The notes under the pieces are model-generated. The model was not told where the DNA came from. It saw only the letters and a program-made list of their open reading frames with translations, and did no database searches. A stretch of DNA of 64,000 bases, taken from sequence record OR842557, one strand, 5' to 3'. A program made the position numbers and the translations under genes. Of the stretch, positions 48,072 to 48,405 are shown in pieces. The stretch comes from Escherichia phage 04086. Position 1 is the stretch's first letter. Every line of letters begins with the position of its first letter.

Positions 48072-48405
48072 AATGAAGACTATTATATAGTCAAGCCGTC
48101 GTATGAAGACTGATTACCAGCATTCACCGGCGCACCAAACAAGAAACCGGGTCGCTACCGGTAAGTCGTCGGACTGATGTTCCCTGAATAAGGACTGACA
48201 TTAACAAATCTTTACGATCTGTTAACGTCCCCTTACATCACAGCAGAAACGGCGCACCGAATTATCGATTCGAGGAAATATCTTTGCCGTAAGCCGAGTA
48301 GCGTTTTTGACGGAACGTTCGGATATGGTCGAGATATGGCCTTTTAAAAATATTGAGTAGCGTCAACTACTTAATAACCGGGTTCGAATCCCGGCGTTTC
48401 GTACA
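48072..48405 (+). ncRNA. Candidate stable RNA(s) downstream of tRNAs (T4 RNA C / RNA D-like), tRNA-like 3-prime element
   Basis: ~330 nt with no convincing ORF; 3-prime part has 7 bp acceptor-like pairing cggaacg / cgtttcg and T-arm ccgggTTCGAATcccgg but no canonical anticodon arm. Confidence 0.3.

Follow-up and report, generated by a model that had tools for sequence, protein, structure and literature searches.

Orthologs of the T4 stable RNAs rnaD and rnaC in the tRNA operon of Escherichia phage 04086 and a comparative fold for rnaC

Results

Identity of the segment downstream of tRNA-Arg

Positions 48072-48405 on the plus strand of a 64,000-nucleotide (nt) stretch of Escherichia phage 04086 (record OR842557; the whole stretch is called the window) lie directly downstream of a tRNA-Arg gene and, judged by alignment, almost certainly contain the orthologs of phage T4 rnaD (species 2 RNA; here 48139-48259) and rnaC (species 1 RNA; here 48265-48403). 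rnaD and rnaC are small stable RNAs of T4 that have been known since the 1970s, and the element itself is already known: it is the T4 species 1/species 2 RNA pair in a QL01-like phage. An initial annotation, made from the letters of the sequence, had proposed a single 330-nt candidate stable RNA with a tRNA-like 3' end, free of open reading frames (ORFs), and had pointed out that T4 has two small stable RNAs at the equivalent place. It is the orthologs of those two RNAs that are found here. The stable-RNA assignment holds for two RNAs and a 67-nt spacer rather than for one 330-nt molecule, and the tRNA-like end is present in only the last 137-139 nt of the segment. The segment is treated as three units because rnaD and rnaC are separate in the alignment with T4, and because T4 and most relatives have no counterpart of its initial 67 nt. 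The identity of the RNAs and the structure described below, taken together, are considered highly probable.

A BLAST search of phage genomes matched the segment in 795 records. Over its full length it is 98.9% identical to the Dhakavirus phages QL01 and WG01, and hundreds of Tequatrovirus records match from query position 63 on, some of them annotated as rnaC or rnaD. The window rnaC is identical to T4 rnaC (NC_000866 70908-71046) at 138 of 139 positions, the sole substitution being a U in T4 that is a C here, within arm A of the fold, and it scores 158.7 bits with the covariance model R1. rnaD (48139-48258/9) aligns to T4 rnaD (NC_000866 71053-71171) over 116 of 119 nt and scores 146.8 bits with R2, a covariance model built from close rnaD relatives. 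On the transcribed strand of NC_000866, tRNA-Arg is followed by rnaD ('species 2 RNA', 119 nt), a 6-nt spacer and rnaC ('species 1 RNA', 139 nt). The older T4 record X03016 annotates both RNAs and a downstream terminator; its species 2 RNA is 120 nt long at the same place, and its species 1 RNA (4741-4877) covers the positions equivalent to 48266-48402. The comparison with T4 that the initial annotation had proposed as a check returned orthology of both RNAs, and the order of tRNA-Arg, rnaD, rnaC and terminator is the same as in NC_000866 and X03016. The window phage is of the Dhakavirus type, not T4, and its rnaC is the same gene at the same place (last of the tRNA subcluster, before the terminator) with the same predicted fold. 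RNAC and RNAD of T4 were classed as late RNAs by Northern blot and RNA-seq, and T4 rnaC was seen by Northern blot as a discrete stable RNA of the ~140-nt class (PMC9697503). Their origin in the T4 tRNA region, late accumulation and detection by Northern blotting are on record (PMC3014915, PMC9697503, PMC12685909).

No ORF longer than 40 amino acids is present on either strand of 48072-48405 and none is plausible, as the initial annotation had stated. An Rfam search, which it had also proposed, identified neither RNA: no family matched at gathering thresholds over the whole window, and none was credible at E up to 10 over 47850-48520, where the sub-threshold matches to tRNA-Sec (17 bits) and isrK (16 bits) were both at chance level. 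ARAGORN and the Rfam models called no tRNA or tmRNA in the segment.

Secondary structure of rnaC

rnaC was compared across 22 distinct sequences from about ten genera of T4-like phages (T4, RB69, QL01, Enterobacter Entb_45, Serratia LC53, Yersinia phiR1-RT, Klebsiella KLB31, VPA32, EI, phi1_146055 and viral contigs). The minimum free energy (MFE) fold of the window copy has a predicted energy of -50.2 kcal/mol, with z = -4.56 relative to shuffled sequences, and is closed by the RNA's own ends. Across the 22 sequences, 92.6% of the cells are paired compared with ~40% when the partners are slid by 1-3 columns, and both-sided changes occur in 28 of the 54 pairs, a number reached by none of 500 shuffles. 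This covariation makes the secondary structure, including the loop-loop pairing, likely. The parts of the predicted fold are as follows.

48266-48272, plus strand: 5' strand of the acceptor, CGAUUCG, pairing with 48395-48401 (covariation)
48273-48342, plus strand: arm A, a 70-nt irregular hairpin with five helical segments (MFE fold)
48307-48312, plus strand: loop A, UUGACG, complementary to loop B
48351-48376, plus strand: arm B, a 10-bp hairpin of 26 nt
48361-48366, plus strand: loop B, CGUCAA, proposed to form the kissing contact with loop A
48378-48394, plus strand: T-arm, CCGGG-UUCGAAU-CCCGG, its stem 100% paired with two pairs changing on both sides
48395-48401 and 48402, plus strand: 3' strand of the acceptor and an invariant discriminator-like U (alignment, covariation)

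The 3' strand of the acceptor, CGTTTCG at 48395-48401, belongs to the 7-bp acceptor-like helix of the initial annotation, and the partner of this strand is corrected here to the 5' end of rnaC itself. Three 5' partners are possible (48266-48272, 48310-48317 and 48247-48253), and compensatory changes support only 48266-48272. One pair of the terminal helix switches between G-C in 13 sequences and A-U in 9, and a second varies among G-C (19 sequences), G-U (2) and A-U (1). The internal partner at 48310-48317 was rejected as the main fold: it keeps 85.8% of the cells, but no both-sided change is seen and the centre of the helix is broken in 13 of the 22 sequences. This pairing is possible as a precursor or alternative conformer. 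When the whole precursor is folded, its MFE structure pairs the acceptor 3' strand with GAAACG of rnaD, and both of these alternative pairings may be conformers of the precursor. On the evidence of the compensatory changes, the terminal acceptor is the fold maintained by evolution.

Arm A has 26 pairs (20 lower and 6 apical) with both-sided changes in 15 and 91-97% of the cells paired. The corresponding values for arm B are 7 of 10 pairs and 96.4%. The arms are connected by an A-rich joiner of 8 nt (48343-48350) that overlaps the invariant AAAAU at 48347-48351. The perfect T-arm read earlier from the sequence, ccgggTTCGAATcccgg, is present at 48378-48394, and its core GGTTCRANYCC occurs twice in the 64 kb, in rnaC and in tRNA-Arg, compared with 0.34 expected occurrences. 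In the model, the T-arm stacks directly on the acceptor and the helices meet in a four-way junction.

Loops A and B are fully complementary in all 22 sequences and occur in three covarying versions. The window has UUGACG/CGUCAA and the phiR1-RT group has UUGAUG/CAUCAA; UUGGCG/CGCCAA is shared by the Klebsiella phages of the Marfavirus type and five additional metagenomic copies. The double changes convert an A-U to a G-C pair in the Marfavirus type and a C-G to a U-A pair in the phiR1-RT type. This pattern points to a kissing-loop contact between the arms. The HIV TAR-TAR* and ColE1 RNA I-RNA II complexes are fully paired loop-loop complexes of 6-7 nt, and both are intermolecular. The rnaC loops are like them in that all loop nucleotides are complementary, and a 6-bp loop-loop helix is sterically possible. 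Both loops lie within one 137-nt rnaC, and therefore arm A must bend back unless the RNA dimerizes.

Four observations temper this structural model. The acceptor carries two U.U mismatches in this lineage, as in most; the same two positions are U-A and C-G in the phiR1-RT group. The evidence for the loop-loop helix comes down to two independent events only. The loop covariation fits an intramolecular kissing contact and an intermolecular dimer alike. The Entb_45 and LC53 lineages have departed from the T-loop consensus and read UGCAUGC or UGCAUCC instead, and a strict tRNA-like elbow is therefore not universally required.

An unpaired GG at the base of arm A (48338-48339, rnaC positions 74-75) may form a contact with a U and a C of the T-loop (48384-48385, positions 120-121) that resembles the contact of G18 and G19 with psi55 and C56 in the tRNA elbow. 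A C at rnaC position 74 is found only in Entb_45, L031 and LC53, which are also the only lineages with the T-loop UGCAUSC (G at position 120). The evidence for the contact is weak because this co-change at 74 and 120 is probably a single evolutionary event. A kink-turn at the GUA bulge of rnaC was rejected, its core positions being missing or not conserved.

Relation of rnaC to known RNA families

rnaC resembles a canonical tRNA (RF00005) in its 7-bp acceptor on a 5-bp T-arm, its UUCGAAU loop, discriminator and four-way junction, and in its location within a tRNA cluster with tRNA-like spacers. It differs in that arms of 70 and 26 nt with mutually pairing loops replace the D-arm and the anticodon arm with its 7-nt loop. 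rnaC is not a canonical tRNA because the test for a D-arm and an anticodon arm (7-nt loop, U33) failed. The missing anticodon arm remarked on in the initial annotation is borne out: arms A and B stand in its place, and neither ARAGORN nor RF00005 makes a call. tRNA-Sec (RF01852) was rejected; its score of 17 bits compares with a gathering threshold of 47, and the alignment uses the 48310-48317 partner, which is without compensatory support. tmRNA was rejected as well, with no ARAGORN call, no Rfam match at E up to 10, a 3:70 pair that is A-U or G-C and not G3.U70, and no tag ORF. The tRNA-like domain of tmRNA (RF00023) is similar in that an acceptor/T-arm minihelix is part of a larger stable RNA with tRNA-type processing, as proposed below for rnaC. 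rnaC differs from it in having no G3.U70, tag frame or pseudoknot ring and in its four-way rather than three-way junction.

The bacterial Y-RNA-like YrlA, the 3' tRNA-like structures of plant viruses and mascRNA are non-decoding partial imitators of tRNA that are recognized by tRNA enzymes, and rnaC would work in a similar way. The ends of YrlA form a Ro-binding stem and not an acceptor, and the viral tRNA-like structures are the 3' ends of genomes. No sequence or Rfam relation of YrlA, the viral structures or mascRNA to rnaC was found.

Conservation and distribution of rnaC

rnaC is 98.6-100% identical across Tequatrovirus, Mosigvirus and Dhakavirus, compared with 67-82% for the neighbouring protein genes (T4, RB69). 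When 45000-52000 of the window is compared with the 3.1-kb Kanagawavirus and Tegunavirus loci of Entb_45 and phiR1-RT, good alignment is confined to rnaC (86% and 82%, respectively); nothing else matches the Entb_45 locus, and any other match to phiR1-RT is far weaker. rnaC always lies within a tRNA cluster on the tRNA strand, and the same location is seen in seven other genera. It is inside the cluster in some loci: in LC53 it is flanked by tRNA-Phe and tRNA-Trp, and in phiR1-RT a tRNA-Trp comes after it. A 19-base structural pattern of rnaC matched only T4-like phage sequences in viral and metagenome collections. The same pattern gave nothing credible in 185,579 bacterial and archaeal species genomes, where the model did not support the three matches, only one of which (L044) reached 15.9 bits, with E = 0.14. 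A weak second R1 match (22 bits, E ~2.5e-4) lies at 1075-1188 on the minus strand of a Citrobacter phage Moon-type locus (L021) and could be a long-arm tRNA or an rnaC-like paralog.

In many T4-like GenBank records, the region of rnaC and rnaD carries one or two 'hypothetical proteins' or nothing (including matches H18, H29, H34, H38, H47 and H59), and one record labels part of rnaC 'tRNA-OTHER'. This mis- or under-annotation is systematic, and hundreds of T4-like GenBank genomes have rnaC and rnaD unannotated or under spurious small proteins. Rfam is without a model for either RNA, and automated scans therefore keep flagging both.

Structure and relatives of rnaD

The predicted fold of rnaD has z = -2.48 relative to shuffled sequences and consists of two hairpins. 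Remote relatives of this RNA with covarying stems were found in other genera.

48146-48162, plus strand: hairpin 1, ACCGG-GUCGCUA-CCGGU, with a 5-bp stem and a 7-nt loop
48165-48257, plus strand: long hairpin with the basal stem GUCGUCG/CGGCG(C)AC, an invariant UCCCUG and a variable apical part (RNAalifold)
L036 669-813; L009 6803-6905; L038 66-168; L021 790-892 (minus strand); L004 1131-1261: remote rnaD-like RNAs, 21-35 bits, with covarying stems

The 18 close relatives show no variation in the 5' ~50 nt or the 3' ~25 nt, and their differences in the apex of the long hairpin are compensatory. R2 detected the remote relatives, at 21-35 bits, in the tRNA clusters of Marfavirus, Karamvirus/Kanagawavirus and Moonvirus-type phages. 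They have in common with rnaD the conserved core AAGUCGUC...UCCCUG...GGCGC. The closing pair of hairpin 1 covaries among A-U, G-C and G-U; with the remote homologs added, all five pairs of this hairpin covary, as do some pairs of the basal and middle stems of the long hairpin. In 13 sequences, 92% of the cells are paired compared with 30-44% in slid controls and 21 pairs change on both sides, in an alignment that was fitted to the model. Hairpin 1 has a 46-nt insertion in the Klebsiella phage EI type.

The window rnaD occupies the same place as T4 rnaD, between tRNA-Arg and rnaC, and the two match exactly in the 5' ~50 nt and in the 3' ~25 nt. They differ in the apex of the long hairpin, where the changes are compensatory, and in the upstream junction: T4 rnaD begins 1 nt past tRNA-Arg, whereas a 67-nt spacer lies between the two in the window. 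T4 rnaD ends in an encoded CCA, but this end is not conserved; the window copy has CCG and others have CAG or CCT. When the T4-like phage BW1 evolved on E. coli ECOR34, the same single-nucleotide polymorphism (SNP) arose in rnaD in all phage lines (PMC12685909), a convergence that is a hint of a host-dependent function.

Three other assignments were rejected for rnaD. A hammerhead ribozyme (CUGAUG...GAAAC) is excluded by the reading CUGAUGU, in which A9 is absent, by the lack of a stem I and by the non-conservation of the motif in the remote relatives; Rfam gave no hammerhead match for rnaD. The core positions of a kink-turn are missing or not conserved. The stretch GUUCCCUG resembles the start of type I-F CRISPR repeats, but no CRISPR-DR family of Rfam matched and the consensus pairing places this stretch elsewhere.

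An additional conserved, ORF-free element of ~156-161 nt lies between the rnaD-like RNA and the tRNA that precedes rnaC in Karamvirus/Kanagawavirus, Moonvirus and Marfavirus-type loci (L004 1262-1417; L011 6182-6337, minus strand; L021 577-737, minus strand; also in L028, L031, L036 and L037). It is closed by the terminal helix GUCCAGAGAG/CUCUCUGGAC and has no Rfam match. It was rejected as an rnaC paralog, model R1 giving no match, and might represent a third stable RNA in such clusters.

The 67-nt spacer

The spacer at 48072-48138 is predicted to form two hairpins (48078-48092 and 48095-48133; fold z = -3.30). In the alignment T4 and GiZh are without it, as are most relatives, and ~24 records of the QL01/WG01 (Dhakavirus) type have it. 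By eye, the second hairpin is like the base of the rnaD long hairpin without its top and has the end CGGCGCACCAAA, as T4 rnaD does at its 3' end, and the blocks AAGYCGTCG, GACTGAT, CAGCA and CGGCGCACC match rnaD. The score of the overall spacer-rnaD alignment was equalled by 51 of 500 shuffles and is not significant; the case for paralogy therefore depends on the blocks judged by eye, and a truncated rnaD copy is offered only as a suggestion. The spacer was rejected as a tRNA remnant, since by eye no T-arm precedes its ...GGCGCACCA end. Gene content at this site is known to vary: in T4, segB lies upstream of tRNA-Arg, and in RB69 an ORF separates tRNA-Arg from rnaD.

Discussion

Proposed processing and possible role of rnaC

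rnaD and rnaC would be excised from a polycistronic precursor by the host tRNA-processing machinery. The 5' end of rnaC would arise by RNase P cleavage 5' of C48266, and its 3' end by trimming to U48402 followed by CCA addition. For RNase P and the CCA-adding enzyme alike, a 7 + 5 bp stack of acceptor and T-arm is the minimal substrate. At several loci rnaC begins 6 nt past the CCA of the upstream tRNA, with a U at position -1 (A in some copies). The mature species 1 RNA of X03016 extends from the first acceptor base to the discriminator U, and the Marfavirus-type copies of rnaC have the invariant U followed by an encoded CCA. T4 tRNAs without an encoded CCA are completed by host enzymes (PMC11143913). 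With these features, the route of RNase P cleavage, trimming and CCA addition is reasonably probable for rnaC.

Both RNAs would, in this phage as well, accumulate as stable RNAs late in infection, with rnaC persisting as a ~137-nt non-decoding tRNA mimic. Such an RNA might bind or titrate a protein that recognizes the acceptor/T-arm minihelix, for which a host tRNA-directed enzyme, a defence factor or a phage tRNA enzyme are candidates, and arms A and B, locked together, would provide the specificity surface. A decoy or cofactor function of this kind is put forward tentatively. The same caution applies to the more complete proposal that rnaC may be a compact, CCA-tailed, kissing-locked tRNA mimic, common to about ten genera of enterobacterial T4-like phages and acting as decoy or cofactor, for example of a host tRNA-directed defence or stress enzyme, with rnaD as a co-evolving partner RNA.

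Several facts speak against such a role. rnaC has no known acceptor-stem determinant of aminoacylation; there is no G3.U70, the 1:72 pair is C-G and the discriminator is U. The departure from the T-loop consensus in two lineages also weighs against it. T4 stays viable on laboratory hosts when its tRNA region is deleted, and any function is therefore conditional. The function of the species 1 and 2 RNAs is called unknown in the literature of 2010, 2022 and 2025 (PMC3014915, PMC9697503, PMC12685909). No functional or structural study of species 1 RNA was found in the searchable full-text literature.

The function of these abundant RNAs is a question about fifty years old, and the comparative fold gives experimental handles on it: the terminal acceptor, the T-arm, the two arms with their covarying loop-loop helix, the CCA encoded in one lineage, and the rnaD relatives elsewhere. 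The searchable literature, which excludes the original papers of the 1970s-80s, has no description of the covariation-backed four-way fold with its loop-loop helix, of the lineage that encodes CCA or of the remote relatives of rnaD; no priority is claimed for any of the three, and the kissing-loop fold and remote rnaD relatives may be partly known already. The added value lies in a testable structural model.

Alternative readings of the segment

The alternative that survives best is a module that acts in cis on the tRNA operon, guiding or pacing its processing, protecting its 3' end from exonucleases or aiding termination, with no function in trans. It fits the viability of the T4 deletions, the 3'-terminal location in the operon immediately ahead of the terminator here and in T4, and the pairing of the rnaC acceptor 3' strand with GAAACG of rnaD in the precursor MFE fold, which shows that alternative pairings exist. 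However, rnaC is followed by tRNA-Trp in LC53 and phiR1-RT and is therefore not 3'-terminal there. The loops and single-stranded residues that are invariant across genera (AAAAU, UUGNNG, CNNCAA) go beyond the needs of a protective hairpin, and discrete stable RNA species accumulate in T4 (PMC9697503). A purely cis-acting segment is unlikely on this balance.

It is somewhat more doubtful still that rnaC, rnaD or both are base-pairing regulatory RNAs with host or phage mRNA targets. This reading draws on rnaD, whose 5' ~50 nt and 3' ~25 nt do not vary in 18 sequences, even in the loops, and in which the convergent SNP appeared during host adaptation (PMC12685909); the RNAs are also loosely named 'small regulatory RNAs' (PMC9697503). 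In rnaC, nearly all conserved bases are used in intramolecular helices or loop-loop pairing, which leaves only short, A/U-rich single-stranded stretches. No target is reported in the literature, and no target search was made here.

A single stable RNA of ~330 nt with a tRNA-like 3' end, as first proposed, would account for a stretch that is ORF-free and structured throughout (fold of 47997-48486, z = -4.96), yet it is very improbable. The T4 records annotate two separate RNAs, 119-120 nt and 137-139 nt long; the covarying pairs join the two ends of rnaC at 48266/48401; T4 and most relatives have nothing that corresponds to the initial 67 nt; and other genera have rnaC with no rnaD next to it. 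Degenerate tRNA pseudogenes, which the initial annotation had named as an outcome that would speak against a stable RNA, or debris of recombination between tRNA genes are just as improbable for the segment as a whole. The location is a hot spot of gene-content change (T4 segB, the RB69-type ORF) and the 67-nt spacer may well be such debris, but rnaC is conserved as functional tRNAs are, far more than the neighbouring genes, its helices covary with compensatory change at 28 base pairs, and rnaD has relatives with covarying stems in other genera. Small proteins, suggested by the 'hypothetical protein (x2)' annotated over the stretch in several T4-like records, can be set aside: the ORFs are of at most 40 amino acids on either strand, several with a TTG start, a 24-residue ATG ORF starts in the spacer that T4 is without, and the family alignments contain 1-2-nt indels with substitutions that are pairwise compensatory and not codon-periodic.

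Organization of the tRNA operon and neighbouring sequence

The segment is the distal part of a phage tRNA operon with the order tRNA(CAU), tRNA-Arg, 67-nt spacer, rnaD, 5-6-nt spacer, rnaC, structured trailer and terminator.

47915-47991, plus strand: tRNA with the anticodon CAU, heading a short tRNA cluster (ARAGORN and Rfam)
47997-48071, plus strand: tRNA-Arg(UCU), directly 5' of the segment (ARAGORN, Rfam)
48072-48138, plus strand: lineage-specific spacer of 67 nt with two predicted hairpins
48139-48259, plus strand: rnaD (species 2 RNA) ortholog (alignment to T4, covariance model R2)
48265-48403, plus strand: rnaC (species 1 RNA) ortholog (alignment to T4, covariance model R1)
48266-48402, plus strand: predicted mature encoded part of rnaC (equivalent positions in X03016)
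48408-48424, plus strand: 3' trailer hairpin, CACUUGC-CUA-GCAGGUG (fold; sequence conserved in T4, GiZh and QL01)
48453-48480, plus strand: intrinsic terminator of the tRNA/rnaD/rnaC unit (fold; alignment to annotated terminators)

The tRNA(CAU) gene is 98.7% identical to a T4 gene annotated as tRNA-Ile. ARAGORN labels it tRNA-Met (anticodon CAT), and the T4 counterpart is annotated as tRNA-Ile (CAU); it is probably a lysidine-dependent tRNA-Ile that reads AUA rather than a Met tRNA. The alignment match covering tRNA-Arg (47991-48076) is 97.7% identical to T4. The terminator noted earlier just downstream of the segment is located at 48453-48480, with a predicted stem at 48453-48476 and a U-run at 48476-48480. 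It aligns with the 'pot. terminator' of the T4 record X03016 and with an ARNold terminator annotated in GiZh, and a simple terminator scan overlooked it because of an internal mismatch in the stem.

A terminator-like sequence appears again ~1.3 kb downstream at 49798-49835, with 84-91% identity to the T4/RB69 terminator region. The window has NNN at 48638-48640 between exact direct duplicates of 206 nt (48432-48637 and 48641-48846), which looks like an assembly or scaffold join. The duplicate takes in the terminator that follows rnaC together with the initial 116 nt of the next gene; the copy of this gene that starts at 48522 is cut off by the Ns, and the gene is intact at 48731-49195 (154 amino acids).

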